From assembly GCA_965218695.1 (NCBI GenBank), contig OZ244651.1:576001-640000 (forward strand): DNA of 64,000 nt. Direction: 5' to 3'. Below the pieces are notes generated by a model. It was not told the origin of the DNA and did no database searches. It saw nothing but the letters and a program-made list of their open reading frames with translations. A program made the position numbers and the translations under genes. Position 1 is the first letter of the stretch, and each line of letters opens with the position of its first letter. The DNA comes from Nitrosopumilus sp. (GTDB lineage: Archaea; Thermoproteota; Nitrososphaeria; Nitrososphaerales; Nitrosopumilaceae). Shown here piece by piece: positions 6,025 to 64,000 of this stretch.

Positions 6025-9000
6025 TCACGATTCTATCTGCGACTTTCCGCCGGTCTTTGACACCCTGTAGATTCGGTCCGCGTACGACTCTAGTTCCGCG
6101 TCGTGGGACACCAGTATCACCTGCGTGGCGCCTGCCTCGTCCAGTACCGTCCGGACCTTCTCCAGCTGCGACTTTGAAAAGCCGTCAGTCGGTTCGTCAA
6201 GCATCAGCGCGCCCGACTCCATGCCGGAGTCCTCCCGCACCATCTTGGCCAGTGTCAAGCGGTACGCCAGCGCTATGCTGGTCTTCTCGCCTCCCGACAG
6301 GTTATACACCGACTGGTCGTGGCCTGATTCCGTGATTATCGGGGTAAAGTCGGCGTCTATGCCGGACTCCTTGGCGGGGTCGTCAAGCAGTATGGAGTAG
6401 AACTCCCCGTACAGGCGGTTGAACCTCGCGCGGATGCTCTCCAGTGAACGCTCCTCCATGATGTTGACGGACGGCACGAATATCTTCTCCATCCATTCCC
6501 GGTATCGTCCCAGGCTGGCATGCTTGGCCTTCCAGGACTTGCGATCTTCTATGGAATCCTTGCACTCTGCTATGGCCTCCTGCGCGTTCTTCAGGTTGGT
6601 TCTGGCAGTGGCCAGATCCACATTGACGCTTGACTCCTTTTGGCGCCACGACGCCAGCGTCTCTTCGATTGACTTCATGGTCTCGTCCAGTTTGTCAAAC
6701 GGGGCAAGCTCGGCCCGCTTTGCGGACAATGCTTCCTCCAGGGAATGGAGCCTTTGTTCGTCTGATTTGATTGATTCGGATGCCTTCACCGCCTGCGACT
6801 CCAGAGACATCATCCGTAATTGGGCATAATCACGAGATTGGACGCATTGCAGGACAAATCTGGCTGACTGCATGGAATTGCATGTCAATTCGAACTTGCC
6901 CGATGATCAAAACTATACGTCAGCCGTGTTTTATTCTGATTGCCAATGTCAAAGCATGTCATTATACGACAAATTAGCAAAAAAGCCCAAACTGTTCATC
7001 CGGTGCACTGGACTGACAGTCTCCGAATTTAATTTGGTGGCAGGGCGGCTGGCAAAAAAATACCCCAAGGCAGAGCAAAAGCGACTCGCCAAAAGAAGCA
7101 GGGTGCGCGGCATTGGTGCCGGACGCAGGTGGAAACTGGATCTGAAAAACAGGTTTCTTCTGGTCCTGTTTTATTACAGGACATACGCTACGCAGGATCT
7201 TCTTGCCATGGTGTTTCAGATGGGCCAGGCTAGCGTGTCCCGCAGCATGGGGGCACTGGAGCCGTCGATCCGGCAGTGCGTTCCGCTTCCGTCAAAGATC
7301 TACGCCAACATCAAGGCCACCAAGACGCTTGACGATCTTGAGGAGATCATTCCGGGCCTGACTGCCCTGATTGATGCCTCAGAGCAGCAGATACAACGTC
7401 CCGGACGCAAGGACATGGAACGGTCCCACTACTCGGGCAAGGCACACAGGCACACGTCCAAGATCCAGTACACGTCGGCCACAGATGGCCTCATCATTCA
7501 CAAGACCCGGCATTCCCCGGGCAGGATCCACGACTTTGCAGTATTCAAAAAGAAACACCCGACATTCCCTGACAACCTTTCACGCAAGGACGGGAGCAAG
7601 GACAAGGAAAGGATCAAAGTCAGAGAGATCCTGGACAACGGATACCAGGGGATCAACAAAGAATTTCCTGACCGGGATGCAGTAGTGCCGTACAAGAAGC
7701 AAAAAGGCGCAGAATTGTCCCCCGAGCAGAAGGAATTCAACAAAAAGCACTCAAAGGCACGGGTGTATGTGGAGCACGCCATCCGCAGGGTCAAACGGTT
7801 TCGCATAATGAGCGGTGTCTACCGAAACCGCCTGAAAAAATACGACACCGTCAATGACATCGTCTGCGGATTTGCCAACCTCAGGGTTCTCCTAGTCCGG
7901 GAAGCAACCTGATAGGAGTCAAAAAACCTACACAGTATAGGAAAATATGTACAATTTCTAATTACGGATTATGTCTCAGGGACTCCAAGGCGGCCTTTGC
8001 ATCCTTCAGGTCATGGATGGCATCCTCGTACTCTGCGACGGAGCGGCGCAATCCATCCAGGTCGCCCAGGCGTGACTTGGCCTTCTGCAGCGGCCTTGCC
8101 TTGGATGCCAGCGATTCAAAATCTGCTGTTTTGGTGCTGATTATATCCCCGGTCTCCTCGGCGTCCCTTGCCGCCTGCAGTTGTTCCCGCGCATCCGAAA
8201 TGGTTGACTCCGTCTTGGATATCAACGCGTTTGCCTCCTTGGCCTGCACGGATATCTCATCCAAGTTTGACTTCAAAGACATGATCCTCTTTCCGACCGT
8301 CTTGGCAGCCTCCTTCCCGTCCGTTCCATGCAGTCCCTGCATGCAAAGGGGGCAGGAGTCGTCATGCTCCAAACTTTCAGCATTCTCTTCTAGCATGCGC
8401 ACCTTGCCACGAAGCACGCTGCCGCGCGCCACGAGGTCGTCCCTTGAAGATTTTGCGTCTTCAAGTTCCGCCTGCATCAGGTCCACGCGGACCTGCAACT
8501 CGCCTACGTCCGCGGCATGGTCGGCAATGCCTGCCTGCAGCGACTTGATCTCCGCGTCCAGTGAATCCATCTTGGCAGTCACACGTATCAATTCGTCTGC
8601 GTCTGGCCGCAGCCGTTCCATGGAAACGTCCAGCTGGCGCAGCGTCATGGTGGAGTGAGGCTTTGGAATCGCGCCGGCGTCCAGTTTCTCCTTCAGCGGT
8701 ACCATCGCTGCACGATACCCATCTGCCTCCCTGGTCGCCTTGCCGATGTTCTCCCGAATGCCCTCAATCTGGGATTCCAGCACGTCTGCCTCGCTTGACG
8801 CCTTGTTTTTCGCGTCCCGTTCCTTTTCGGCCTTTGAGTATGCTGCCTCGCACGACCTTACCTCCACTCCTGCCGCCTTGGCGTCTGCATCCAGCAGCGC
8901 TATGTTACCCTTCAAATCCTTGGCCATGTCCTGGTGCGATGCAAGTTTTTCCTCCAACTGGGGCACGTCCTCGAACCGTATGGAATACTCCTTCATGGTG

Positions 9001-9560
9001 CGCTTTATCTCCGACACCACCTTCTTGGCATTCTCCCTTGCCACTGCAAACCCGTCTATCTTGAACGCCCTGCGTATGGTCTCGGTGCGTTTTTTGGGAT
9101 CTGCCAGCACGGCCTGCATGTCCTCCTGCGGCGTGTACACGGCGTACCGGAATATGCTGGTCTCGGCGCTGGTTCCGGCAGGCTCGTCGGTCCCCAAAAT
9201 CTGTATAACCTTCTGCTTCATCTCGCCCACGCCCAGCGTGTCGTCCTTGACCCCGTCCTCGCTTATCCACGCGCTCTTCGCATTCTGCCCTATCTTGCCG
9301 CCGGACTCCTTGATGGCACGGTATATCTCGTAGGAGCGGCCGTTGGACTCGAATGCCAGCTTGATGGAGCCCGACTGTTTCCCCTTAGACAGGAGGGCGT
9401 CGGACTTTTGCCCGCCGAAGCCGAACAACGCGAACTCTATGGCCATCAATATGGTAGACTTGCCGCATCCGATATCGCCAATCAACAGCGTGGTGCCGGA
9501 GTCAAACTCGATGCGGCATGAATCGTAGCTCCGCACGTTGTCGATTTCCAGGGATGGAAA
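6025..9560 (-). pseudogene. rad50: Second Rad50/SMC-like ATPase, split by an IS and lacking an obvious start
   Basis: N-half (GDIGCGKST Walker A, YTPQE Q-loop, CPLC hook) and C-half (LSGGE signature, LDEPT, VSHD). Removing 6805-7976 plus one CAG copy restores one frame of about 780 aa. Confidence 0.9.
6805..7976 (+). mobile_element. IS5-family (DDE_Tnp_4, ISL2-like) insertion sequence; transposase 6956-7912
   Basis: IRs AGACATCATCCGTAATT / AATTACGGATTATGTCT, 3-bp target duplication CAG; IDASEQ...DNGYQG...RVYVEHAI motifs. Confidence 0.92.
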
Positions 9561-17074: not shown

Positions 17075-17188
17075 ATGGCCAAGCATGATTGGATCTATGA
17101 CTTGTCGGCGGACTGGAAATGCAGAAAGTGCGGCCACAACAACGGCAACACGATCCATGAAGAAGACTGGGACGGATGTCCCGGATAA
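17075..17188 (+). CDS. 37-aa zinc-binding microprotein (not in ORF track)
   Basis: MAKHDWIYDLSADWKCRKCGHNNGNTIHEEDWDGCPG; CTTATAC box at 17046-17052. Confidence 0.55.
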   Translation: MAKHDWIYDLSADWKCRKCGHNNGNTIHEEDWDGCPG

Positions 17189-18218: not shown

Positions 18219-18338
18219 ATGGGAGCACCGGATTGCGACAAATGCGGGATGGACACGTTTCAGACAGCATGTTGCGGCACCGAAATTTGCGGGTGCACCA
18301 CGCACTGCCCCAAATGCAAGAAGAAAATTATCATGTAA
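18219..18338 (+). CDS. 39-aa Cys-rich microprotein
   Basis: MGAPDCDKCG...CCG...CGCTTHCPKCKKK; CTTTTAC box at 18191-18197. Confidence 0.6.
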   Translation: MGAPDCDKCGMDTFQTACCGTEICGCTTHCPKCKKKIIM

Positions 18339-18416: not shown

Positions 18417-19667
18417 TTGAGGTTTGCGCACATCTCCGATATCCACCTGGGATTCCAAAAGAACCCGGCGCTGCAGGACATCGAGCAGCATGTGTTCGAG
18501 GACGTGTTAGACAGGTGTATCTCCATGAATGTGGACTTTATCCTCATGCCAGGCGACATATTCCATGTGAATATCCCGCCAATGCGGGTCCAAAAGTACG
18601 CGTTTGCAAAGTTCCGCCAGGTGTATGAGGCCGGGATTCCGGTATACGTGGTGTATGGTAGCCATGACTTTTCCCCCGTGTCTGGCTCGGTAATCGACTT
18701 ACTGGCCTCGATTGGTTACATAACCAAGGTTACCAGGGCTGAAAGCAGCGCTGATGGCACCATATTACTGGACTTCATACGTGACAAGACCGGCGCAAAA
18801 ATAACCGGCCTGTCAGGACTCAAGGCGGGAAACGACCGCACGTACTATGAAAAACTAGACCGGGCGGTGTTGGAGTCCGAACCCGGATTCAAGATATTTC
18901 TGTTCCACGGCGGGATTGCAGAGATGAAGGACAACATGATAAACGAGGGAGAAATGATGCCGCTGTCGTTGCTGCCGAGGGGATTTTCGTATTATGCCGG
19001 CGGGCACATGCACGAGCAGAACGCCCAGAAGTTTGACGGGTACGCGCACGTCGTATACCCGGGCACGCCGTTTGCGGGGTTTCATTCCGACCTGGAAGAC
19101 AACGCCGGCGGGACCAAGAGGGGATTCTATGTAGTCGAATTTGAAGACAACGTCAAGTCAGTCGAGTTCATCCAGGTGGAAAACGCGTCGTACGGCATGA
19201 TTGACGTAAACGCCGAAGGCAAGCCCGCGGAGTCCGTGAATGCCGAACTGCAGCAGAGGACTGCCGACGCTGATCCAGCAGGCAAAATCATGATAATCAG
19301 AATTTCAGGCGAGATGGCAAATGGCAAGACGGCCGACGTGGACGTTTTGGCCGCGCAGGCCGGCCTAACACAAAGGGGCGCGGTGGCCACGCTGATCAAG
19401 AAGAACAAGCTAAAGTCAAAAGAGTACGAGATAACGCCAGTCAAGGGGGCTGACCGCAAGGAGATTGAGGCCGGCATATTTTTTGAGAACATCGGGCAGC
19501 TCCGCCTCGGCAGGGAGGATCTGGCCGGAGAGCGCGGCGTCGGCCTTGCAGTAACACTGCTCCACACCCTAGGGGCCGGACAGCTTGTCAACGAAAAGAA
19601 GGCCGAATACACAGACAGGATAAAGGAAGACGCGCTTGCAGCATTGGGGATGAATAATGATTCTTGA
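18417..19667 (+). CDS. mre11: DNA double-strand break repair nuclease Mre11
   Basis: SDIHLG, GDIFH, GSHD, FHGG, GGHMH, YPG phosphoesterase motifs; overlaps the rad50 start. Confidence 0.96.
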   Translation: MRFAHISDIHLGFQKNPALQDIEQHVFEDVLDRCISMNVDFILMPGDIFHVNIPPMRVQKYAFAKFRQVYEAGIPVYVVYGSHDFSPVSGSVIDLLASIGYITKVTRAESSADGTILLDFIRDKTGAKITGLSGLKAGNDRTYYEKLDRAVLESEPGFKIFLFHGGIAEMKDNMINEGEMMPLSLLPRGFSYYAGGHMHEQNAQKFDGYAHVVYPGTPFAGFHSDLEDNAGGTKRGFYVVEFEDNVKSVEFIQVENASYGMIDVNAEGKPAESVNAELQQRTADADPAGKIMIIRISGEMANGKTADVDVLAAQAGLTQRGAVATLIKKNKLKSKEYEITPVKGADRKEIEAGIFFENIGQLRLGREDLAGERGVGLAVTLLHTLGAGQLVNEKKAEYTDRIKEDALAALGMNNDS

Positions 19668-22077
19668 TTCCATCGTGGTTGAAAACATCCGCAGCTACGC
19701 GCACGAGGAGGTAGAATTTTCAACCGGAACGTCGTTGCTCGAAGGCGACATCGGCTCTGGCAAGTCGACCATACTGATGGCAATAGAGTTCGCGCTGTTC
19801 GGCCTGGGGGCGCAAAAATCAGAATCACTGCTGTCCAAAAAGGAGAGCGCGGGTTACGTGGTGTTGAAGTTCACAGTGGACGGCCACTCGTACGAAGTCA
19901 AGCGTGCGCTGAAAAAGACCACCCATGGAACAAACCAGAACCCAAAGGACTCGTGGTTCAAGCAGGACGGCGTGCACGAGCCCCTGTCGCCGTCGGAGAT
20001 CAAGCAGCGCGTACTGGAGATTCTCGGGTTCAACGAGTCCGCAGACCCCAAGACGGAAAGCAGGATCTACCGATATGCCGTCTTTACGCCGCAGGAGGAG
20101 ATGAAAAAGGTGCTGTCTGACTCCAAAAACCGCCTGGAGACAATAAGGAAGGCGTTCCAGATAGAGGAGTACAGCACTGCATGGGAAAACGCCAAGCTGC
20201 TGTCGTCGGATATCCGGACCAGGATGGCCGTGATGGCAGTAAGGTTTGGCAGTATTCCGGAACTGGAATCGATGATATCCGAAGTTGAAGATGAGATTGA
20301 CGCTGCCGACGCCAAGATCCAAGAAGGACGGGAGAGGCAAAAGAACATCGATGGCAGGATTGACGCTGCCGACGCCGAATTAAACGAGTTGCGAAAAAAA
20401 GACTCCACGAGGATCCGCCTGCAGTCTGAAATCGACGGCCTGAAAGGCAAGATTTCCGAAAGAACCAACATGGTGAAATGGATCAAAAACGGCATTGAGG
20501 AATCCAAAAAAGAGTTAGAAGAACTGGATGCCGACTACGACGAGAAGGCCAAGACAAAGGCGCCGGACACTAAAATGACGAGCTACGAGTTAACAGACGA
20601 AATAAAGAAGTTCCAAAAAATCAGCGAGGCCCGCGTGCAGACAGAGACGAAACTAAAGTCGGTCAAAACAGACCTGGCCGACATACGGGTAGAGCTTGGT
20701 GACATGGATACCAGCCTTGAATCTGCCAACGGTATGCTCGAATCCATGCAGGAGAAGAAAAAGACGTATGACGCGCAAGAGGAAAAAATACGGGCCGGGC
20801 TCGACTCTGCGCGCAGCCAAAAGACCCGCATGCAGACGAAAAAGGAAGGACTGGAAGACGAGATAGGCAGGTTTGCCACACTGGGCAGCAGATGTCCCAT
20901 GTGTGATCAAGATATAGATGAAAAGCACAACCACGCGATGGTCGATGACAAGAAGGCGGCCGTGCTGGAACTGGACAGGGAACTTGCCCAGACAGATTCC
21001 ACCATATCCCGGCTTACCACCGGGTTGGCTGAAAACGTGGAACTGCTGCGCGTGTGTGAGGACAAAATACCGCACATCCGGGAATCTATCAACGACGTCA
21101 AGTGGCGGGACGAACTGCAGTCTGACATTCCCAAGCTTGAAAAAGAGATAAGCGGGTTTGACTGCCAGTATTCTGAATTTCCCGGGGGGAATCCAATCGA
21201 GGTTCTGGGCAAACTCAAAGATGATGTGGCATCGTACGAACAGGTAGGATATGACATGGAGCGCATTGAGATTTCGAGGCGCAAGGTGAGGAACTATATA
21301 CAACGCAACCTTGAGGACATGGAGTCTGCAAAGTCGCAAATCTCAGAATGGCAGGCAGAACTGGCTCAGCATGAATCCAAGTTTGTCGTCATGGAGGACG
21401 TGACCGGTACGATAAAAGAGATTGAAGAAAAGACAGAAGGCCTGCGGGCCGAACTTGCTACCGTGGCTCACGACGTCACGGTGGCCGAAACCACCGTATC
21501 CAACAAGGAGGAAAACGCGGAATACTACAGGGCACAGCTTGCAGAATCCAAAAGACTAAAGGCGCTGCACGGCGAATCCTCCAAAACGCATGAATGGCTT
21601 GACAAGTTTTTCATGCCGGCCGTCAAAGAAATTGAAAAACAGGTGTTGCTGGACATACTGCAGAGATTCAACGCCAAATACCGCGAATGGTATTCGATGC
21701 TGGTCGACGATCCCACCAAGGAGTCAAGGATAGACGAGAACTTTACACCCGTGGTAGAGCAGGACGGGTACGAGCAAAAGGTGGATTTTCTCTCCGGGGG
21801 CGAAAAGACCAGCATAGCGCTTGCGTACAGACTTACACTGAACACGCTGGTCAGGGAGGCCGACTCGATAAAATCCAACCTGCTCATTTTGGACGAGCCC
21901 ACGGACGGCTTTTCCCAGGACCAGCTCGCAAAGGTGCAGGAGATACTGGACACCATCGACTCCGAGCAAATCATACTGGTCTCGCATGACCGCGAACTGG
22001 AGAACTGCGCCGATCACGTGTTCCAAATCTCAAAACACGACGGGATGTCAAGGATCCAGAAGGTCAGTGTTGGGTAA
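19657..22077 (+). CDS. rad50: DNA double-strand break repair ATPase Rad50
   Basis: GDIGSGKST, FTPQE, coiled coil with CPMC zinc hook, LSGGE, LDEPT, VSHD. Confidence 0.96.
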   Translation: MILDSIVVENIRSYAHEEVEFSTGTSLLEGDIGSGKSTILMAIEFALFGLGAQKSESLLSKKESAGYVVLKFTVDGHSYEVKRALKKTTHGTNQNPKDSWFKQDGVHEPLSPSEIKQRVLEILGFNESADPKTESRIYRYAVFTPQEEMKKVLSDSKNRLETIRKAFQIEEYSTAWENAKLLSSDIRTRMAVMAVRFGSIPELESMISEVEDEIDAADAKIQEGRERQKNIDGRIDAADAELNELRKKDSTRIRLQSEIDGLKGKISERTNMVKWIKNGIEESKKELEELDADYDEKAKTKAPDTKMTSYELTDEIKKFQKISEARVQTETKLKSVKTDLADIRVELGDMDTSLESANGMLESMQEKKKTYDAQEEKIRAGLDSARSQKTRMQTKKEGLEDEIGRFATLGSRCPMCDQDIDEKHNHAMVDDKKAAVLELDRELAQTDSTISRLTTGLAENVELLRVCEDKIPHIRESINDVKWRDELQSDIPKLEKEISGFDCQYSEFPGGNPIEVLGKLKDDVASYEQVGYDMERIEISRRKVRNYIQRNLEDMESAKSQISEWQAELAQHESKFVVMEDVTGTIKEIEEKTEGLRAELATVAHDVTVAETTVSNKEENAEYYRAQLAESKRLKALHGESSKTHEWLDKFFMPAVKEIEKQVLLDILQRFNAKYREWYSMLVDDPTKESRIDENFTPVVEQDGYEQKVDFLSGGEKTSIALAYRLTLNTLVREADSIKSNLLILDEPTDGFSQDQLAKVQEILDTIDSEQIILVSHDRELENCADHVFQISKHDGMSRIQKVSVG

Positions 22078-22205: not shown

Positions 22206-22280
22206 AGATCAGTAGCACAGTCTGGACAGTGCAGGCGCCTTCTGAGTGCCAGGTCGCCGGTTCGAATCCGGCCGGGCCCG
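22206..22280 (+). tRNA. tRNA-Arg(TCT)-like gene with mispaired acceptor stem (possible pseudo-tRNA)
   Basis: D stem GCAC/GTGC, anticodon stem GGCGC/GTGCC with loop CTTCTGA, T arm GCCGG-TTCGAAT-CCGGC. The 3' strand CGGGCCC faces 5' AGATCAG (3 mismatches). Confidence 0.8.
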
Positions 22281-22312
22281 TCTCCTTTTATGTGAACCCA
22301 GCCATGTGGGTA

Positions 22313-23050
22313 TTGGTATTTTCGGCAAAAACCCACGGATCAGAGGACACCAAGGCCATAATAACATCAATCTCAACATTAGTCGAGGAGGCTACGTTCG
22401 TGGCAACCCCCGAAGGCATCACGTTTCGTGGAATGGATCCGTCGCATGTGGCGCTGGTTGACGTGAACTGGCCAAATTCGGCGTTTGAGCAGTATGACTG
22501 CAAAGACGAGGTAAAGTTCGGCGTCAGGATAGACGAACTGGCAAAGATCATCAAGCGGGTCGACAAGAAAGACGACATCGAGATCAGCATAGATAACAAC
22601 GTGTTGCTTTTGACTGTAGGCAGGAGCAAGAAATACAAGATTCGCCTGATAGAGAGCTCTACAAACGACACGCCGTTGCCAAAAATCCCATACGATTCCA
22701 AGATAGTTCTGAGGCACGGCAAGTTCGAGAAGATTCTTGGCGACGTGAACGTGGTGTCGGAATACATTGCAACGTATGCCGAAGGGTCAAAATGTTCGTT
22801 TTCAGGCAAGGGTGACAGTGGCGAGGTCGTGATCGAGGTGGATGCAGACGAGACAGAAGAAATAAGCGCCAAGAATCCAGGCGAGGGAACGTACAGCCTG
22901 GAATACCTTACGCCGATGGTAAAGGCGGTTGGCGGTGCGGGTGATAATGTGGTGTGCGAGTTTTCGGAGGCAAAGCCGCTGCGCGTGGAATTTCCAATAG
23001 CAGGAACCGGAAGAATACACTTCTACCTGGCTCCCAAAGTCAAGACCTGA
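22313..23050 (+). CDS. pcn: DNA polymerase sliding clamp PCNA
   Basis: LVEEATF...GMDPSHVALV...YSLEYL...KPLRVEF...HFYLAP, close to thaumarchaeal PCNA. TTG start chosen from the TTTTATG box at 22287-22293 (ATG 22304 is an alternative). Confidence 0.95.
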   Translation: MVFSAKTHGSEDTKAIITSISTLVEEATFVATPEGITFRGMDPSHVALVDVNWPNSAFEQYDCKDEVKFGVRIDELAKIIKRVDKKDDIEISIDNNVLLLTVGRSKKYKIRLIESSTNDTPLPKIPYDSKIVLRHGKFEKILGDVNVVSEYIATYAEGSKCSFSGKGDSGEVVIEVDADETEEISAKNPGEGTYSLEYLTPMVKAVGGAGDNVVCEFSEAKPLRVEFPIAGTGRIHFYLAPKVKT

Positions 23051-23402: not shown

Positions 23403-23695
23403 GCCTGGTATTGCATTGAAAGGTAAAAATTTTTACTTTTCAATGCAATATTTTTGCCCGGTCGTGGTGCTGGCTGGCGGTTCGCGGCCATGCATGATTG
23501 GCACGACGTCTGCAGTCACCGGCGGCGGCGGCGGCGGCGGCGGCAACGATGCCAAGTCACCAGATTTCATCGCCTGATCAGACAGTGCTTGCACTGCGTG
23601 CCGTAGTTGACCCGCCTGTGCTTGCCGCAGTCGGCGCAAGCCTGGCGTCGCATTGAAAGGGAAAAATTTTTACTTTTCAATGCGACATTTTTGTC
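23402..23695. repeat. Two about 57-bp direct repeats, each containing a 40-42 bp near-perfect palindrome (23409-23450, 23647-23686)
   Basis: TATTGCATTGAAAGGTAAAAA|TTTTTACTTTTCAATGCAATA and GTCGCATTGAAAGGGAAAAA|TTTTTACTTTTCAATGCGAC; the spacer contains (GGC)8. Confidence 0.9.
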
Positions 23696-23770
23696 GGCCT
23701 GCATGAATTTAGTACGGTCTAGCAACGTACGGCACAAAATTTCCTTTTATGCAGATTGGTTCTTCACCGC

Positions 23771-44210: not shown

Positions 44211-45560
44211 ATGTACAAGACGGTCCGCGTGCCAATATACTATGATTCAAGATTCGAGGAGTCCTTCGAGGAGCAGCTGAAAAATTACGATACCGCGTAC
44301 AAGCACGCGATAGCCTGGTATTACGACGAGGCCGAAGCCGTGCGGGAGTTTTTGGAGGAACAGGGCGCGGAGCCGGATTCCATACCCGGACTGGTATGGA
44401 CGAGCCTGCCCGGAACGTACCATGCGTACTACAGGCTTACCGAATTCAGGCGCGGCAAAAACCTGGGACCCGCGCGCCTGCAAAGGGCCGCGTGCTGCCG
44501 CGCGCGTGAGGCGGTTTCCAAGTTCCTGCATTCCAACATGAAGAAGCGATGGTCCAGAGACAGACTGGCCAAAGACGGCCGCAAGCCCAGATGCAAAAAA
44601 CCAGAAACGCTTCTAAAAAACCAACACACCGTGCTATCGCAGGCCGCACCCATAGCCAAAAAAGGTGGCATGTTGTACCTGCCTGGCGTTGGCCAAATCC
44701 AACTGGCCCGCAAGATACCCAACATGGATATGCGGTCGTACTCATTAACAAGGAAGAGCGGATACATTGAACTGCATGTCTACATACGTGAACCAGATCC
44801 CCCTCTGAAGAGGAATGCGGGCGAGCCGATAATCTGCATAGACGCAGGAGTAAAGCACGCGCTGGCAGTATCGCTCCAGCAGGACGGAACCAACCACGTC
44901 TGGTTCATGGATCCGCCAGAAAATGCAAGAAGGCACAAGGACGATGATATCTCCTGGCTGTACTCCAAGCGTTCCAAGAAGAAGCGCGGCTCCCGCGACT
45001 ACAAGGCAATAACCAGACGGATCCAGGCCAAAGCCAAAAAGATTGCAAACCGCGCCCAAAACTGGGAGCGCCAGGCTGCGAGCTTTTTGTCCGGACTTGC
45101 CGGCAAGATAGTCGTGGAGGATCTGAACCTTCAGGCAATGGCCAAGCGAAAATACGACACGCCAGGCAACCGCGGTTTGAACCGCAGCATGGCATATTCT
45201 CGGATCGGCTCCCTTCTGGATACGATAGAATGGGGTTGCAAAAAGGGCGGCACCATACATGAAACCGTGCCCGCAGCATACACGTCCCAAACGTGCTGCA
45301 TGTGCGGGACCACAGATTCCAGATCCAGGGAAAACCAGGCAGACTTTCACTGCACGTGTTGCAGGTCCGCAATGAACGCGGACGAAAACGCCTCCGTGAG
45401 CATATCGGTTCGGGGAGGCGCGGCGGCAGGTATGGCCGTCGTCAAGCAGGAGGACGGTGCCCGTTTGTTCGGGCTTCCAAGGAAGGAACCGCCGACGCGC
45501 GGCCATTCCATGATAGCTCAAATTGCTCGGAGCCGCCGGACTGTCGGCAGACCCCGATAA
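44211..45560 (+). CDS. tnpB: IS200/IS605-family TnpB RNA-guided nuclease (no TnpA)
   Basis: RuvC I CIDAG, RuvC II VVEDL, YTSQTCCMCG...FHCTCC zinc ribbon, RuvC III NADENA. Confidence 0.93.
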   Translation: MYKTVRVPIYYDSRFEESFEEQLKNYDTAYKHAIAWYYDEAEAVREFLEEQGAEPDSIPGLVWTSLPGTYHAYYRLTEFRRGKNLGPARLQRAACCRAREAVSKFLHSNMKKRWSRDRLAKDGRKPRCKKPETLLKNQHTVLSQAAPIAKKGGMLYLPGVGQIQLARKIPNMDMRSYSLTRKSGYIELHVYIREPDPPLKRNAGEPIICIDAGVKHALAVSLQQDGTNHVWFMDPPENARRHKDDDISWLYSKRSKKKRGSRDYKAITRRIQAKAKKIANRAQNWERQAASFLSGLAGKIVVEDLNLQAMAKRKYDTPGNRGLNRSMAYSRIGSLLDTIEWGCKKGGTIHETVPAAYTSQTCCMCGTTDSRSRENQADFHCTCCRSAMNADENASVSISVRGGAAAGMAVVKQEDGARLFGLPRKEPPTRGHSMIAQIARSRRTVGRPR

Positions 45561-47472: not shown

Positions 47473-47601
47473 ATGGAATTGATATTCCATTGTCCTGGTT
47501 GCGGCCATTGCATGTCATACGCGAGCCATGAATACGACAGGTTGGAGCGCGACTGCGAGGATTGGGACGTTGGCGGATGTCCGTCATGCGGCAAAAAATA
47601 A
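47473..47601 (+). CDS. 42-aa zinc-ribbon microprotein (not in ORF track)
   Basis: MELIFHCPGCGH...WDVGGCPSCGKK; CTTATAC box at 47445-47451. Confidence 0.65.
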   Translation: MELIFHCPGCGHCMSYASHEYDRLERDCEDWDVGGCPSCGKK

Positions 47602-47714
47602 TTTGGCGCGTAGTGCTTTTACCATTTTCCCCGCATCATTACGTGAAAAAAACCTGTGATATCTGCTGGTATCAATATGACCGCAGGACGCGTAATTCTT
47701 GTCCCAACTGCGGG

Positions 47715-48206
47715 TCAAGCGATTAACCCGGCCCACCTTTTCACGTCTATCGGGTCCAGCATGGTGCATTCTATGCCAGCCGCCTTCAGCAGTTTGTCGT
47801 CATTTTCAGCATACGTCCCAATGCAGACAATCCTCCTGATTCCTGCCGTGATTAACATTTTGGTGCACTCCAAACATGGAACCAGCGTCGTGTACATTGT
47901 GGAGCCGCCGACTGCCACGCCCAGCGTGGCGCAGTGCACTATGGCGTTGGATTCTGCGTGGCTGCAAAGGCAGCGTTCAAGTGATTCGCCCGATCTTATC
48001 TTGCCTGCCTTTCGTTTTGCGCACCTGTCGCACCCGCCCTCGTAACAGTTGGCTAGCCCGGACGGCGTGCCGTTGTATCCCGCAGAAAGCTGTATGTGGT
48101 CACGTACAATCACGGCCCCGATCTTGCGCGTGAGGCAGTTGGAGCGCAATTTGACCAGCTCGGCCTGCAGCATGAAGTACGTGTCCCAGTCCGGCCTTGC
48201 GTCCAT
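47715..48206 (-). CDS. dCMP deaminase (ComEB family)
   Basis: RPDWDTYFM, RSNC, GYNG, HAESNA, PCLEC motifs. Confidence 0.94.
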   Translation of the reverse strand: MDARPDWDTYFMLQAELVKLRSNCLTRKIGAVIVRDHIQLSAGYNGTPSGLANCYEGGCDRCAKRKAGKIRSGESLERCLCSHAESNAIVHCATLGVAVGGSTMYTTLVPCLECTKMLITAGIRRIVCIGTYAENDDKLLKAAGIECTMLDPIDVKRWAGLIA

Positions 48207-55863: not shown

Positions 55864-56094
55864 ATGGTAAATTGTGCTATATGCAATAATGCTGTTCAAG
55901 GACGGGACTGGCTGATGTGCAACGATTGCGCTCTCTCGAACAATGTCTGCGTCCTGTGCAAGAACACTATACAGTGGCGCGACGGGCTAGTATGCGACAA
56001 CTGCGCGCGTTCGAAGAACGTCTGTAGTAATTGCGGGAATCATTGGGACGGGGCAAATATTACTGGTAGCCTGGTGTGCGACGACTGCGACTGA
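55864..56094 (+). CDS. 76-aa protein of three CxxC-x-CxxC repeats
   Basis: Six CxxC pairs (CNDCALSNNVCVLC / CDNCARSKNVCSNC); CTTTTATAC box at 55835-55843. Confidence 0.75.
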   Translation: MVNCAICNNAVQGRDWLMCNDCALSNNVCVLCKNTIQWRDGLVCDNCARSKNVCSNCGNHWDGANITGSLVCDDCD

Positions 56095-57195: not shown

Positions 57196-57306
57196 ATGAG
57201 ATGTATATGTAGTGCCAAACAAGGCGGCGGCTTGGAACCCACCCCGGTAATCGTTTCCGGTGAGATGAGTTGTAAAGCATGTGGCGTCGTGTTGACACCA
57301 ACCTAA
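57196..57306 (+). CDS. 36-aa TFB/TFIIB zinc-ribbon-like microprotein (not in ORF track)
   Basis: MRCIC...SGEMSCKACGVVL; TTTTATG box at about 57168-57174. Confidence 0.5.
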   Translation: MRCICSAKQGGGLEPTPVIVSGEMSCKACGVVLTPT

Positions 57307-60900: not shown

Positions 60901-61454
60901 TGTTCAGCAACCGCAAGAAGAACTATTTCGGCGTGACGAGGTCAGGAAAGCTGGACGTCAAGGGCCTGACTGGCAAAAAGTCTCACACCCCGCCTTTCAT
61001 CAAACAGGCGTTCAAGGAAATACTCGGCATACTGTCCGGGATCCACACGCCCGACGACTTTGAGGAGGCAAAGAAGAAGATATCGACAAGGATCGCCGAC
61101 TACGGCGGCCGCGTGGTGGCGCGGGAGATACCGCTGCAGGACCTGGCGTTTACTGTCCGGCTGAGCAAGCCGCCTGCCGAATACACCAAGACAATCCCCC
61201 AGCACATCAAGGCCGCGAAACAACTTGACAATGCCGACATGGTGAGGAGCGGCGACCGCATATCGTTTGTCAAGGTCATAGGCAAGATCGGCGTGCGGCC
61301 TGTCGAGAAGGCCAGGCGCGACGAGATCGACACCAGGAAATACATGGCGTTCATGGAGTCCACGCTGGAGCAGATCACGTCGTCGATGGGGCTGGATTTT
61401 GACACCATGCTGCAGAAGCCGAAACAATCAGGCATGGACGAATTTTTCTGGTAA
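57966..61454 (+). CDS. polB: Family B DNA polymerase (PolB1-type) with intein and C-terminal PIP box
   Basis: DIEV, YNGDEFD exonuclease motifs; DFASLYPS, KVILNASYG, YGD|TDS, KKNYFG; QSGMDEFF PIP box. Confidence 0.97.
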   Translation: MTGPLMLVSASYDSADKRVVLKFYDPASHKIVLWKDNTGHRPYCYSKLSADELREIRSMDRVTGISRVVLHDLAKDKPVGMSKITAADPFAIIGTYDQPGVKNKIEAWEADIRYHESYLYDRNLIVGRYYRIEDGCVVPHSMEISGDVQSALKTLLWDKMDDGSVVDADEFREFVTSWADLLNQPIPDIRRLAVDIEVESEGGRIPDPIIADKKITAVGLKGTGLDRVFVLRTEGVPEGEDGLAGNVGVAFYDSEKDMIRDALRVMESFPFVLTYNGDEFDMPFLYNRAKRLGIDDKQNPLYMMRNSATLKKGVHLDLYRVMSNRSFQVYAFSQAYSDFSLNSVSKALLGKEKIDYGLNFDQMSLCQTANYCYNDSLLTYELTSFNGDILMNLLVIISRIGRMPIDGIARMGVSQWIKSLLYYEHRVRGCLIPNRKDLDARSQGVISDAVIKDKKYKGGLVVQPKEGVHFDVVVMDFASLYPSIIKVRNLSYETVRCPHPECRANAIPLTNHWACKKRNGLTAMIIGSLRDLRVNYYKSLSRNESFTEKQRDQYTVVTQALKVILNASYGVMGADIFPLYFLPAAEATTAIGRHTIQGSIEICKAQGVDVLYGDSTPGDTPVTCERNGIRQIIPIRSLAPSTVTHGRQSHAALKVLSDTGFVDVAYSYVHTVKKTGYRIGTRKSYVEVTDDHSLIIDGKETKPSQLRIGDTIDILPNNIRVFDNDRVLSDDMAWLFGFYISDGTLVCERGTNIWRIVKNDKTKLEKAQKIIAKHLGFKTKVSLCPSRDKLHMITSMDKSVSTIAKYFAYHCYSGKTKIIPGCILNGTNRVKNAFLQGVIDGDGHVDKKDKSITFGQIHKSVLAGYISIITDLGHDYSLKFRRDKPNFISVRIIRNKHDVRIRRANAITLLEKFIIDEPVYDFSTANEHFRGGLGNILLHNTDSVFLLSPDDTQVKSIISQAKAKFKVDLEADKEYRYCVFSNRKKNYFGVTRSGKLDVKGLTGKKSHTPPFIKQAFKEILGILSGIHTPDDFEEAKKKISTRIADYGGRVVAREIPLQDLAFTVRLSKPPAEYTKTIPQHIKAAKQLDNADMVRSGDRISFVKVIGKIGVRPVEKARRDEIDTRKYMAFMESTLEQITSSMGLDFDTMLQKPKQSGMDEFFW
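59808..60785 (+). mobile_element. Intein with LAGLIDADG endonuclease in PolB motif C (326 aa)
   Basis: YGD|STPGDT...VTDDHSL...LFGFYISDG...FLQGVIDGDG...ILLHN|TDS. Confidence 0.95.
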
Positions 61455-61595
61455 CGTGTGCACAAGGCTCAGCATCTGTTATCAGTCCAAATCTGTTGTT
61501 CTTGTACAGGCATGAAAACCCCCTGGACTGCTGTCAGTCCAAACAGCCGATGCGAAAAATACATGGTGCTTTTATCATCATGGATCCTTCACCCC

Positions 61596-61769
61596 ATGAG
61601 CCTCTGCCAGTACTGCCGTAACGATACAGACAAGACGCATTTCGGCTGCCGCAGGGAGGCCAACCGGCGCGCCTACAATCCGAACGTCTGCTCGTGCTGC
61701 GGCGGCAACCATAACGACGGCAAGGATCATACAAAATGCATGAAGTGGGCGAATTTTCCGGGCTACTGA
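61596..61769 (+). CDS. 57-aa Cys/His zinc-binding microprotein
   Basis: CQYC...HFGC...CSCCG...HTKC...PGY; CTTTTATC box at 61569-61576. Confidence 0.7.
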   Translation: MSLCQYCRNDTDKTHFGCRREANRRAYNPNVCSCCGGNHNDGKDHTKCMKWANFPGY

Positions 61770-61816
61770 TCCTGGTCGCAAGTATGCCCTTTTTATCAAT
61801 CAGATCCAATCATTCC

Positions 61817-61891
61817 AGCGGGGTGGGGAAGTCAGGTCATCCCGGGGGGCCCATAACCCCCAGGTCGGCGGTTCGAATCCGTCTCCCGCTA
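61817..61891 (+). tRNA. Initiator tRNA-Met(CAT)
   Basis: A1-T72 pair, AGCGGGG/TCCCGCT acceptor stem, GGGGG/CCCCC anticodon stem, loop CCCATAA, GGTTCGAATCC T arm; no intron, no encoded CCA. Confidence 0.95.
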
Positions 61892-62332
61892 CTCCCACAT
61901 TATGTCAGGCTCTGGCCATTCTTCAACCACGCTGGGCATCCTTTTCATCTCTTTATCCAGGTAATCAAACCAAGACACCTTCAGCTCCTTGAGATCCGTG
62001 ATATCTATCACGATGAATGGTATCTTGGCAAGTTTGTAATCGGCGTTCCGCTTGGCCGTCCTTTTCGCGCCAGGCTTGGTGTGGTGGATCGAGCCGTCCA
62101 GCTCTATGACGTACTTGAGGCTGCCGTGCATGTCACGCACCATTATGTCCGGATGGTGCTGCACCGTGCCTTTCAGGTCTGGTTTTGACAGATCCTTGTA
62201 CACGCCGGTTACGGAATAGTCCCACCTTGAGATCAGGATGAAATGCTCCTTGAGTATCTGCTCGCCTGGTATGTTGTGGACGCCTTTGATGTAGGATATC
62301 AGTGAATGCAGCTGCGCGTCGTCTGTCTCCAT
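61889..62332 (-). CDS. Vsr/DUF559-like PD-(D/E)XK endonuclease
   Basis: HPDI...VIELDGSIH...RNADY motif; the stop codon overlaps the tRNA 3' end. Confidence 0.75.
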   Translation of the reverse strand: METDDAQLHSLISYIKGVHNIPGEQILKEHFILISRWDYSVTGVYKDLSKPDLKGTVQHHPDIMVRDMHGSLKYVIELDGSIHHTKPGAKRTAKRNADYKLAKIPFIVIDITDLKELKVSWFDYLDKEMKRMPSVVEEWPEPDIMWE

Positions 62333-62368
62333 GACGTGGCTGATTGGTTTGCTATTAAGGAAATGCTG

Positions 62369-62680
62369 TTACCGGCCTAACTTCGCAAGTTCCCGGCCGC
62401 CCAGTATCCTGCACCTGATTCCGCAGTATTTCGCGCCGAACTTGCGGCCGACGATCTCGTCCCCGCACTGCGCACAACGCGTCGGCGCCTCCCCGTGCTT
62501 GTGTTTTCCGCCCTTGTGGCGTGCATAGCACACCGGACCGCAAAACCTGGCGTTGGTCCTCTTGCCATCCAACATGTTCCTGCAGTACTCGCACCTGGGC
62601 TTCAGGCCCTGGCGCAGATCCTCCAAGAATGCTTCGGCGTCGTCTGTGACCATGCCGTTCTTGGCAAACACCTGGCTCAT
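62369..62680 (-). CDS. Double treble-clef zinc-finger protein
   Basis: Two CxxC...(F/Y)CxxxC units; AT-rich promoter at 62700-62750. Confidence 0.7.
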   Translation of the reverse strand: MSQVFAKNGMVTDDAEAFLEDLRQGLKPRCEYCRNMLDGKRTNARFCGPVCYARHKGGKHKHGEAPTRCAQCGDEIVGRKFGAKYCGIRCRILGGRELAKLGR

Positions 62681-63088
62681 GCAGGCACCTTCCACACATA
62701 TCTTTTATGCATACTTATAATAAATATTTATAATATTTAAAGATATTGAATATCTGCGACATGAACAGCGGAATATTGCACTCGGAATGTCATCTATCCA
62801 CCAGCGTGGCCATGTCGGCCGACGTTTTCCTCCTGGCATGGCCGCCTAGTTCATGCCCTTATACGCTCCCGGGTTTTTCACTCCATGTCCAAGTGTTATC
62901 TGTGCAGCAGGACCGATGCCAGCAAAAAATGTGACTCGTGTGGCGCAATCGCATGTCCAGACCATTCCAAAACATGCGGCGGCAAGCCTCGCTGCAGTCA
63001 CTGTATCACGATCCATGGCAGCGGCAAGCTGGCCGGCTAGTCCCACCAACCCTTTTTTCTCTTTTTATGCTGAGCGTTGTTTCGTCAC

Positions 63089-63277
63089 ATGGAAAAGTGC
63101 CACATATGCCAAAAAGACGCCGCAGACGACGTGGGATGCACCAAGTGCGGGAAATACACGTGCAGGCGCCACAGGGTAGGATGCGACTCGTGCTGGGACA
63201 TGTTCTGTACGAACCATGGCCGGAAATGCGGCGGTGCCTGGTACTGCACGTACCACGCAGACAAGCACGGCAAGTAG
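63089..63277 (+). CDS. 62-aa Cys/His-rich microprotein
   Basis: CHIC, CTKC, CRRH, CDSC, CTNH, CTYH; TTTTTATG box at 63062-63069. Confidence 0.75.
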   Translation: MEKCHICQKDAADDVGCTKCGKYTCRRHRVGCDSCWDMFCTNHGRKCGGAWYCTYHADKHGK

Positions 63278-63344
63278 GATGCCGCCATATCCCATGCATT
63301 TTTTGACGCGCAATGCAGATAAGGTATCCAGACCAATACAACCC

Positions 63345-63488
63345 ATGGCAGAATGCGGACATTGTGGCAAAGAGGCTGCAACCGGACGCGCCTGCGATCA
63401 GTGTTTCCGGGACGGCTGGTACCACGGCTGCGGCAAGTCCAAGCGTGCTGCCGGCAAGATGTTCTGTGATCCATGTCTGGGAAAATAA
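63345..63488 (+). CDS. 47-aa zinc-finger microprotein (array paralog 1)
   Basis: MAECGHC...CDQC...GWYHGC...FCDPC. Confidence 0.7.
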   Translation: MAECGHCGKEAATGRACDQCFRDGWYHGCGKSKRAAGKMFCDPCLGK

Positions 63489-63519
63489 CCGCTTATATCA
63501 TATCCAAATCCAGACTCGC

Positions 63520-63666
63520 ATGGAGAAATGTGTCCGCTGCAAGAAAAAACGCCAGGGCGGCGTGCTGAAGGTATGTGATGGTTGCAGGGCCGCCGGATGG
63601 TGTGCTGACTGCGGGCAAACCAAGGCACCGAGCCAAGGCACGTTCTGCGACACATGTGCTCCATAG
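63520..63666 (+). CDS. 48-aa zinc-finger microprotein (array paralog 2)
   Basis: MEKCVRC...CDGC...GWCADC...FCDTC; CTTATATC box at 63492-63499. Confidence 0.75.
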   Translation: MEKCVRCKKKRQGGVLKVCDGCRAAGWCADCGQTKAPSQGTFCDTCAP

Positions 63667-63723
63667 GCTATTCGTAGGCTATTTGTAGATCTGGTGTTTT
63701 TACGATTTTTGAGTTTTGGGTGC

Positions 63724-63864
63724 ATGAGTTTATGTTGGCACTGCCACAAATACCAATACAGCGGCAACAAGCTCTGCAGGAACTGCCGCAAAGAGGGCTG
63801 GTGTGAGTGCTGCGGGCACGAACGCGCCATACGCGGCACGAAGTGGTGCGTAAAGTGCGCGTGA
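63724..63864 (+). CDS. 46-aa zinc-finger microprotein (array paralog 3; not in ORF track)
   Basis: MSLCWHC...CRNC...GWCECC...WCVKC; TTTTTAC box at about 63697. Confidence 0.75.
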   Translation: MSLCWHCHKYQYSGNKLCRNCRKEGWCECCGHERAIRGTKWCVKCA

Positions 63865-63956
63865 ACCAACTTTCCTCCAAAGATCAGGATTTCAAGCCGT
63901 GAAGCAAGTCTGGATGGACGGATTTGCCTTATACGGTTAGCGTACAATGCCATGTG

Positions 63957-64000
63957 ATGGGGGAAATCGGATGTGTTAGATGCGGCGGGCCAATCGGCAC
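63957..64000 (+). CDS. Start of another CxxC microprotein, cut by the window end
   Basis: MGEIGCVRCGGPIG; CTTATAC box at 63928-63934. Confidence 0.5.
   Translation, partial: MGEIGCVRCGGPIG

Follow-up and report, generated by a model that had tools for sequence, protein, structure and literature searches.

The window, by which we mean the whole 64-kb stretch of DNA analysed here, carries in its last 1.1 kb six consecutive plus-strand, Cys-rich ORFs detected by ORF scan, and this array of at least six genes extends past the window end at 64000. The first two encode B-box-like microproteins: B1 (62885-63040, +), a 51-aa Cys/His protein recognised as an ORF paralogous to its neighbour, and B2 (63089-63277, +; 62 aa), recognised by alignment and codon score. 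They are followed by three GW-type double fingers, namely G1 (63345-63488, +; 47 aa), whose fifth ligand is Tyr, G2 (63520-63666, +; 48 aa, eight Cys) and G3 (63724-63864, +; 46 aa), and by the start of a sixth Cys ORF (63957-64000, +), which has CxxC at residues 6-9, is cut by the window end and could equally begin at a GTG at 63954. The initial annotation of this DNA had described at least five consecutive genes of 46-62 aa starting at 63089, 63345, 63520, 63724 and 63957; all five are confirmed as plus-strand ATG ORFs, while B1 (z 4.2 against B2) was a sixth gene that it had overlooked. Its remark that the ORF list was overextended is also correct, the first-start list being too long for all five (63077, 63216, 63313, 63694 and 63924).

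The array ORFs are coding and non-random. Between 62850 and 64000 there are five complete one-strand ORFs of 40-70 aa with at least three CxxC/H motifs, while among 2000 first-order Markov resamplings 1975 contained no such ORF, 25 contained one and none contained more. Synonymous codon use, scored against 12 long non-IS genes of the window, gave a pooled 21.4 bits for the five complete ORFs versus -44.6 +/- 11.7 for a null of random recodings, and 0 of 5000 recodings reached the observed value. Singly, the codon score was clear and in frame for B2 (15.8) and G3 (9.9), weak for B1 (0.7) and G2 (-0.1), and for G1 (-4.9) no better than in that gene's other frames. The six ORFs occupy three different frames, and each of the five complete ones opens with Met-x-x-Cys and stops shortly after its last ligand. 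The complete proteins have 7-10 Cys in 46-62 aa and three to six CxxC/H motifs each, and all array proteins are basic (net +3 to +6). All five complete ORFs fall within the broad class of archaeal zinc-finger microproteins (<70 aa, at least two CxxC-type motifs), and their products are small, probably metal-binding proteins. A census picked by hand counts 20 small CxxC ORFs across the window, five of them the array genes, so the trait is general to the window and reaches its highest density in the array.

A library with a fixed scaffold had been proposed, but the proteins divide in two. Against shuffled sequences in which only the Cys kept their positions, z was 4.3-5.0 for the three G-G pairs and 4.2 for the B1-B2 pair, whereas none of the six B-versus-G pairs exceeded z 2.3; judged by this similarity of sequence, the array is made up of two unrelated paralogue families, the B pair and the GW-type trio. 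B1 and B2 both start with CxxC-x8-9-CxxC-x4-CxxH, and in the alignment B2 resembles B1 plus one extra CxxC-x4-CxxH unit of 15-16 aa. Their start pattern matches that of B-box domains (PF22586), although both have extra C-terminal ligands, and they score 13.2 and 10.4 bits against the Pfam ANCHR-like B-box cut-off of 27 (E 0.1 for B1). The top Atlas match of B2 is 'putative B box-type' (0.89), a lead only, with recognition below threshold. All array proteins stay below the Pfam cut-offs, with DZR_2, DZR and the ANCHR-like B-box as best matches (E 0.08-0.8), none of the five matches PHROGs or PADLOC at E<=0.01, and the G and B profiles found nothing meaningful among PDB sequences. Pizza matches in that search were discarded as summed repeat noise. 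Neither family carries a library name.

The GW-type proteins share the scaffold CxxC-x9-11-CxxC-x3-GW-CxxC-x11-CxxC, that is, two tandem CxxC-x9-11-CxxC fingers. The initial annotation had recognised this scaffold in the same three proteins, together with the Cys-to-Tyr change in the first of them (63345), and needs correction only in the last spacer, which is x11 and not x10 in all three. Cys occupies the position of the G1 Tyr in the homologues P0001 and P0004. The accompanying statement that nearly all non-Cys positions differ was too strong: identities at these positions are 10/38, 8/36 and 10/37 in the G pairs (22-27%), and G-type proteins have an invariant Trp and a conserved Gly. Identity by codon position in four paralogue pairs was 0.49-0.57, 0.49-0.54 and 0.37-0.41 for the first, second and third positions, lowest at the third in each pair, and third positions are near saturation between paralogues. 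Because the third codon position is the least conserved in all four pairs, the duplications are old and constrained at the protein level.

Relatives of the G family are few. A G profile compared with 1.84 billion representatives gave nine matches at E<=0.001. Among these, P0001 is a stand-alone 54-aa homologue with the whole GW scaffold (E 1.2e-7), to which G1 is 50% identical, as against 37% to G2 and 33% to G3, while P0004, which has no first finger, agrees almost fully with the second half of G1. Six longer proteins of repeated four-Cys fingers (P0003, P0005-P0009), one of which also bears an HNH domain, match the G profile finger by finger only; they have basic spacers between fingers, where G proteins have a five-residue x3-GW link instead. 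P0002, a spurious repeat protein, was dropped from the G relatives. A profile of 24 repeats from the six longer proteins ranks G1, G3 and G2 first of 1727 window ORFs, a ranking that is partly circular in that the six source proteins came from the G profile. In the GTDB species genomes a scan with two patterns gave one confirmed locus of 80 matches, an eight-residue chance match without the CxxC scaffold. One of these patterns was an exact match to G1, and therefore G1 itself appears to be absent from the GTDB species genomes. Searches for homologues by word index, run with the G alignment and with G1, returned no candidate and are insensitive here, since even P0004 was missed; tblastn yielded nothing better than E>=2, whether G1 was compared with phages or G2 with plasmids. 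The divergence at third positions and the closer relation of G1 to an outside homologue than to its neighbours therefore indicate old duplicates and not a fast-varying library.

Structure prediction had also been recommended, and succeeded in part. AlphaFold2, run on G1 with a four-sequence alignment, gave one model of pLDDT 79.9 (pTM 0.55); the other four reached only pLDDT 56-62, and the model of B2 (pLDDT 40) is unusable for the B-box cross-braced two-metal fold. The best G1 model has two units, in each of which a short helix comes after a short pair of strands. In treble-clef zinc fingers a hairpin knuckle precedes a helix and each provides two ligands; the two units of the G1 model may have this arrangement, which would imply two metal sites of four sequential Cys each. 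Foldseek with the G1 model gave no match at E<=0.001 in the PDB or BFVD, the best PDB rows covering 22-27 columns of small ribosomal chains and TtuA, and VIA-align placed 0 of 48161 chains at Z>=2.

Most array genes have promoters of their own. A TATA matrix derived from 20 non-array genes ranks five of the six array starts in the top 0.5-2.9% of 2579 window ATGs, and in five of six the box lies at -28 to -30. These are the TATA boxes of B1 (62857-62866, +; score 10.6, top 0.7% of the ATGs), B2 (63061-63070, +; score 11.2, fused to a T-rich tract), G2 (63491-63500, +; score 9.3) and the sixth ORF (63927-63936, +; score 8.9), and a moderate TATA-like box for G3 (63696-63705, +; score 5.3, top 2.9%). 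This spacing in five of six therefore indicates leaderless-type promoters for five array genes. G1 has no detectable TATA box; its score of -0.6 is at background, and 20.5% of ATGs score as high. The boxes initially reported for 63089, 63520, 63724 and 63957 accordingly hold, all within the top 0.5-2.9%, but not the 'weaker' one assigned to 63345. The absent box, the lost ligand and the weakest codon signal may be three signs of decay in G1, which is possibly degenerating or possibly read through from upstream. The T-rich tract fused to the B2 box may also end the B1 transcript, and a T6 tract after B2 (63299-63304, +) looks terminator-like in sequence.

Such promoters are widespread in the window. 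TATA-like motifs peak 25-29 nt before ATGs window-wide (at -27, 20 motifs among 1021 CATG sites versus about two at other distances), and the RNR and deaminase genes, a tRNA and most other window genes likewise carry leaderless-type promoters. Among Thaumarchaeota, 11 of 11 genomes belong to a group with prevalent leaderless transcription, with the box about 26 nt from the start (PMC6028130). Individual promoters are the norm both in the window and in Thaumarchaeota. Once the TATA box is set aside, the five promoters of the array resemble one another no more than do random fives from 22 other window promoters (identity upstream 0.24 versus 0.27 +/- 0.03, downstream 0.33 versus 0.32 +/- 0.05), and their upstream purine fraction is lower (0.44 versus 0.55). 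Array spacers measure 31-92 nt and have 39-48% GC, the ORFs 56-59%. A sigma-70 promoter scan gave one hit where 2.4 were expected and was set aside as irrelevant. A strongly AT-rich, partly palindromic stretch (62695-62760), a possible divergent promoter or operator, separates the array from a divergent 103-aa two-finger gene (62369-62680, -); a hairpin at 62755-62865 was not significant (z -1.3).

The initial annotation had pictured the array as a cassette-like library with a variable surface, and this view is not sustained. No repeats common to the array spacers were found, spacer folding is ordinary (z-scores 0.63, -0.04, -0.16, 0.48 and -1.79), and Rfam finds only a tRNA in 61400-64000. 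No integrase occurs among the scanned window ORFs (36 with NCBIfam, 28 with Pfam), although a distal recombinase is conceivable because the array runs beyond the window, and no recombination site (repeat or hairpin) of the kind that an integron-like array would have was found between array genes. A diversity-generating retroelement was considered and rejected, with no reverse transcriptase among the scanned ORFs and no template-like DNA repeat. With spacers free of repeats and hairpins, no promoter motif specific to the array and divergence of the old-duplicate type, there is no supporting evidence for a cassette library with a hypervariable surface.

The surrounding genes are concentrated on DNA metabolism. 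In NCBIfam comparisons, 36 long window ORFs include PolB1, a B12-dependent RNR (NrdJ), PCNA, Mre11, two Rad50, a dCMP-deaminase-like gene and methylases, as well as eight transposase-like ORFs and TnpB, and include no ribosomal, tRNA-synthetase or energy genes; a kinase is also present, and two tRNA matches occur in the window. PolB1 scores 1080.9 against a cut-off of 780 for the cellular family PRK05761.1-3, and the TnpB-family RNA-guided nuclease (44211-45560, +) is likewise above its cut-off. An intact Mre11-Rad50 pair lies at 18525-22077 (NCBIfam), while the second Rad50 copy (6025-9446, -) is interrupted by an IS5-family transposase (6872-7912). Pfam comparison of 28 ORFs found intein or homing-endonuclease domains in RNR and PolB and Mrr and GmrSD nuclease domains, together with below-cut-off matches to PrgI (E 0.0008) and Peptidase_A24 (prepilin peptidase; E 0.00089). 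VirB4, VirD4, TFIIB, ParB and capsid genes were not seen among the scanned window ORFs, nor element ends within the 64 kb. The N-extein of PolB shows 22.5-26.5% identity to phage and plasmid proteins among the matches listed.

PCNA (22304-23050) is of a divergent lineage whose named relatives are from Nitrosopumilus, Nitrosopumilaceae or Nitrosopumilales. It is 66-69% identical to nine PCNAs on long contigs, which are themselves 81-93% identical. In a tree of the window PCNA and 26 of 120 listed matches (long-contig, named or top-scoring), rooted at the midpoint only, it falls outside a 23-row main clade that holds the long-contig PCNAs, and groups with P0011 (93%) and, at the midpoint root, with P0013 and P0032 (on a 292-kb contig); these three may mark related elements. 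The gene content of this one 64-kb window, on which the reading rests, suggests part of a large mobile element, ICE- or plasmid-like, with a Nitrosopumilaceae host and a cellular-type replisome; a divergent chromosome is a possible carrier. As in thaumarchaeal ICEs, there are IS insertions and a tRNA neighbourhood, and the below-cut-off matches are candidates for the prepilin peptidase and the VirB3-like membrane protein of such elements, but the window differs from those surveyed in having a cellular-type, intein-bearing PolB1, PCNA, RNR and Mre11/Rad50, and in the survey only one ICE, casposon-like, has PolB (PMC6563490).

Several further features of the window were recorded. A tRNA found by Rfam and not by ARAGORN (22206-22280, +), with an anticodon loop reading Arg(TCT), lies directly before the PCNA promoter; it seems 5'-truncated, because the 5' and 3' strands of its acceptor stem are unpaired, and looks like a pseudo-tRNA or attachment-site relic. 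Two near-identical 34-nt palindromes (23413-23446 and 23650-23683), 237 nt apart, flank a short run of GGC and a single-finger ORF (23567-23704, -); they might be operators, the end of a miniature transposon or what is left of a repeat. Small Cys-rich ORFs are scattered at 61596-61769, 17075-17188, 18219-18338, 47473-47601, 47577-47726 and 57196-57306, several with a good TATA box, and none of the six matched the G or B profiles. A TATA-bearing gene for a 147-aa protein (61889-62332, -) overlaps the 3' end of tRNA-Met and has no Pfam, NCBIfam, PHROG or PADLOC match; its acidic motifs presumably resemble those of a PD-(D/E)xK nuclease. A 76-aa tandem four-Cys finger protein (55864-56094, +), stand-alone and TATA-bearing, passes the Pfam CRIPT cut-off (28.3 versus 25.5) and has CRIPT (7dvq; E 0.017) as its best PDB match, which may reflect convergence of the Cys pattern. 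CRIPT (PF10235) has the same kind of CxxC-x9-10-CxxC tandem as the G proteins, but 0 of 5 array proteins match it at E<=1, only the non-array ORF at 55864 passing, and the similarity of array proteins to that ORF is not significant (best z 2.0).

Archaea are already known to have small zinc fingers that are individually promoted. For example, Haloferax has 49 zinc-finger microproteins (PMC11241148), and 12 of 16 deletions of such genes show phenotypes (PMC6562870). Of the Haloferax C(P)XCG proteins that were purified, 9 of 14 bound zinc and 5 were zinc-free (PMC11241148), and zinc in the array proteins is therefore not assured. Haloarchaeal C(P)XCG microproteins (HVO_2753, HVO_0758) are, like those of the array, single-domain proteins of <70 aa with two to four CxxC, and an HVO_2753-like cluster is the rank 3 Atlas match of G2 (0.88; a lead only, with recognition below threshold). 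The array differs from them in spacing, GW linker, tandem clustering and Nitrosopumilaceae-type context, and no array protein matches the Pfam HVO_2753 family at E<=1. Similarly, double zinc ribbons (DZR PF12773, DZR_2 PF18912) have two successive CxxC-x9-11-CxxC units as the G proteins do, but all G members miss their cut-off (12.3-13.3 bits versus 27, E 0.078-0.15). Thaumarchaea have a large share of dark-matter genes (PMC6393860), the cited part of PMC13444090 does not mention zinc, and full-text searches, mainly of openly accessible articles, showed no report of the array or of its two families.

The explanation we favour, with somewhat better than an even chance, is a genuine cluster of monocistronic microproteins in two families, formed by old local duplications on a large Nitrosopumilaceae mobile element and serving as non-enzymatic, presumably zinc-stabilised binding or regulatory modules. 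Each gene would be read by host TBP, TFB and RNA polymerase into a leaderless mRNA. The G proteins are predicted to form two head-to-tail four-Cys fingers, each a hairpin knuckle with a short helix, holding two metal ions, and the B proteins may form B-box-like Cys/His clusters. As rigid binding modules, the products would regulate processes of the host or of the element, and would do so non-enzymatically, because they are too small to have room for a catalytic site. The paralogues would persist since each binds a different target, while G1 may be losing its function. Nucleic acid seems a slightly likelier target than protein, because the repeats link to an HNH-bearing protein and the charge is basic; protein binding is nearly as likely, given that the basic inter-finger helices are lost and the Trp is invariant. 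Location on a probable mobile element makes a role in host interaction plausible.

Of the alternatives, an early anti-defence or host-takeover bank, in which every paralogue would block a separate defence protein of the host upon entry, fares best and is still unlikely. Archaeal viruses carry small monocistronic paralogues in clusters that are established as anti-defence genes, with a shared regulatory sequence as a defining trait (PMC11065993, whose main text contains the word 'zinc' 0 times). The array, clustered on a probable mobile element, resembles the SIRV2 anti-defence genes and duplicated AcrID1 paralogues in being small, monocistronic and paralogous, and five of its six genes have their own TATA promoter, but no regulatory sequence is shared around the core promoters in the manner described there (PMC11065993). 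Homologues are few, as for fast-evolving conflict genes, with only two of the nine matches among the 1.84 billion representatives being short proteins across the GW region, but the divergence looks old and not positively selected, and PADLOC and PHROGs recognise no array protein. From the small metal-binding effectors initially envisaged there thus remain real, probably metal-binding tandem paralogues, mostly with their own leaderless promoters, while an anti-defence role is possible at most (0/5 in PADLOC and PHROGs). A bolder version, which we regard as speculative and hold at a low probability, is an undescribed large element of ammonia-oxidising archaea that replicates itself, can be transferred and brings along a replisome of cellular type, and whose approximately 20 separately promoted zinc-finger microproteins, with the array as core, form a host-control or anti-defence arsenal that duplicates and sheds members such as G1.

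It is also improbable that the window is an IS-rich accessory chromosomal region of a divergent Nitrosopumilaceae and that these are ordinary cellular zinc-finger microproteins regulating stress or lifestyle. The PolB1 score above the cellular cut-off (1080.9 versus 780), the two tRNA matches, promoters of normal cellular type and the Haloferax precedent of 49 such proteins and 12/16 deletion phenotypes (PMC11241148, PMC6562870) would fit a chromosome. However, neither translation nor energy metabolism is represented among the 36 and 28 ORFs scanned, the window is dense in DNA-metabolism genes and has two copies of Rad50, PCNA lies outside the 23-row clade of long-contig PCNAs, and the two patterns brought up no true relative from the GTDB species genomes. 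Metallothionein-like metal or redox buffers, with gene number serving as dosage, are very unlikely: 7-10 Cys in 46-62 aa and the many further small Cys-rich ORFs of the window agree with buffering, but fixed CxxC spacing, the invariant Trp, the conserved Gly, an ordered model and two architectures suit folded fingers, near-identical copies would be expected if dosage mattered, and none of the genes beside the array was identified as a metal transporter. Least credible of all is debris of one decayed multi-finger gene, or spurious ORFs, an outcome that the initial annotation had named as fatal to its proposal and that is now largely refuted: longer proteins of the same finger repeat exist (P0003, P0005-P0009), G1 lacks a ligand and a TATA box and its relative P0004 a first finger, but the five complete ORFs begin with Met-x-x-Cys and end soon after the last ligand, the six lie in three frames, the spacers are AT-richer and hold TATA boxes, P0001 stands alone as a homologue, and matches to the long proteins are confined to single fingers.

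As far as the evidence now goes, the array as such is a structure of an unremarkable kind, and the carrier element may merit more attention than the array. The two families, which are easily missed or mis-started by ORF callers, nevertheless enlarge the set of small proteins of ammonia-oxidising archaea that go unannotated. Should the carrier prove to be a large replicon that encodes its own PolB1 and PCNA, the thaumarchaeal mobilome would extend beyond the ICEs surveyed in PMC6563490, and the array would supply small, easily expressed candidates for host-control factors.
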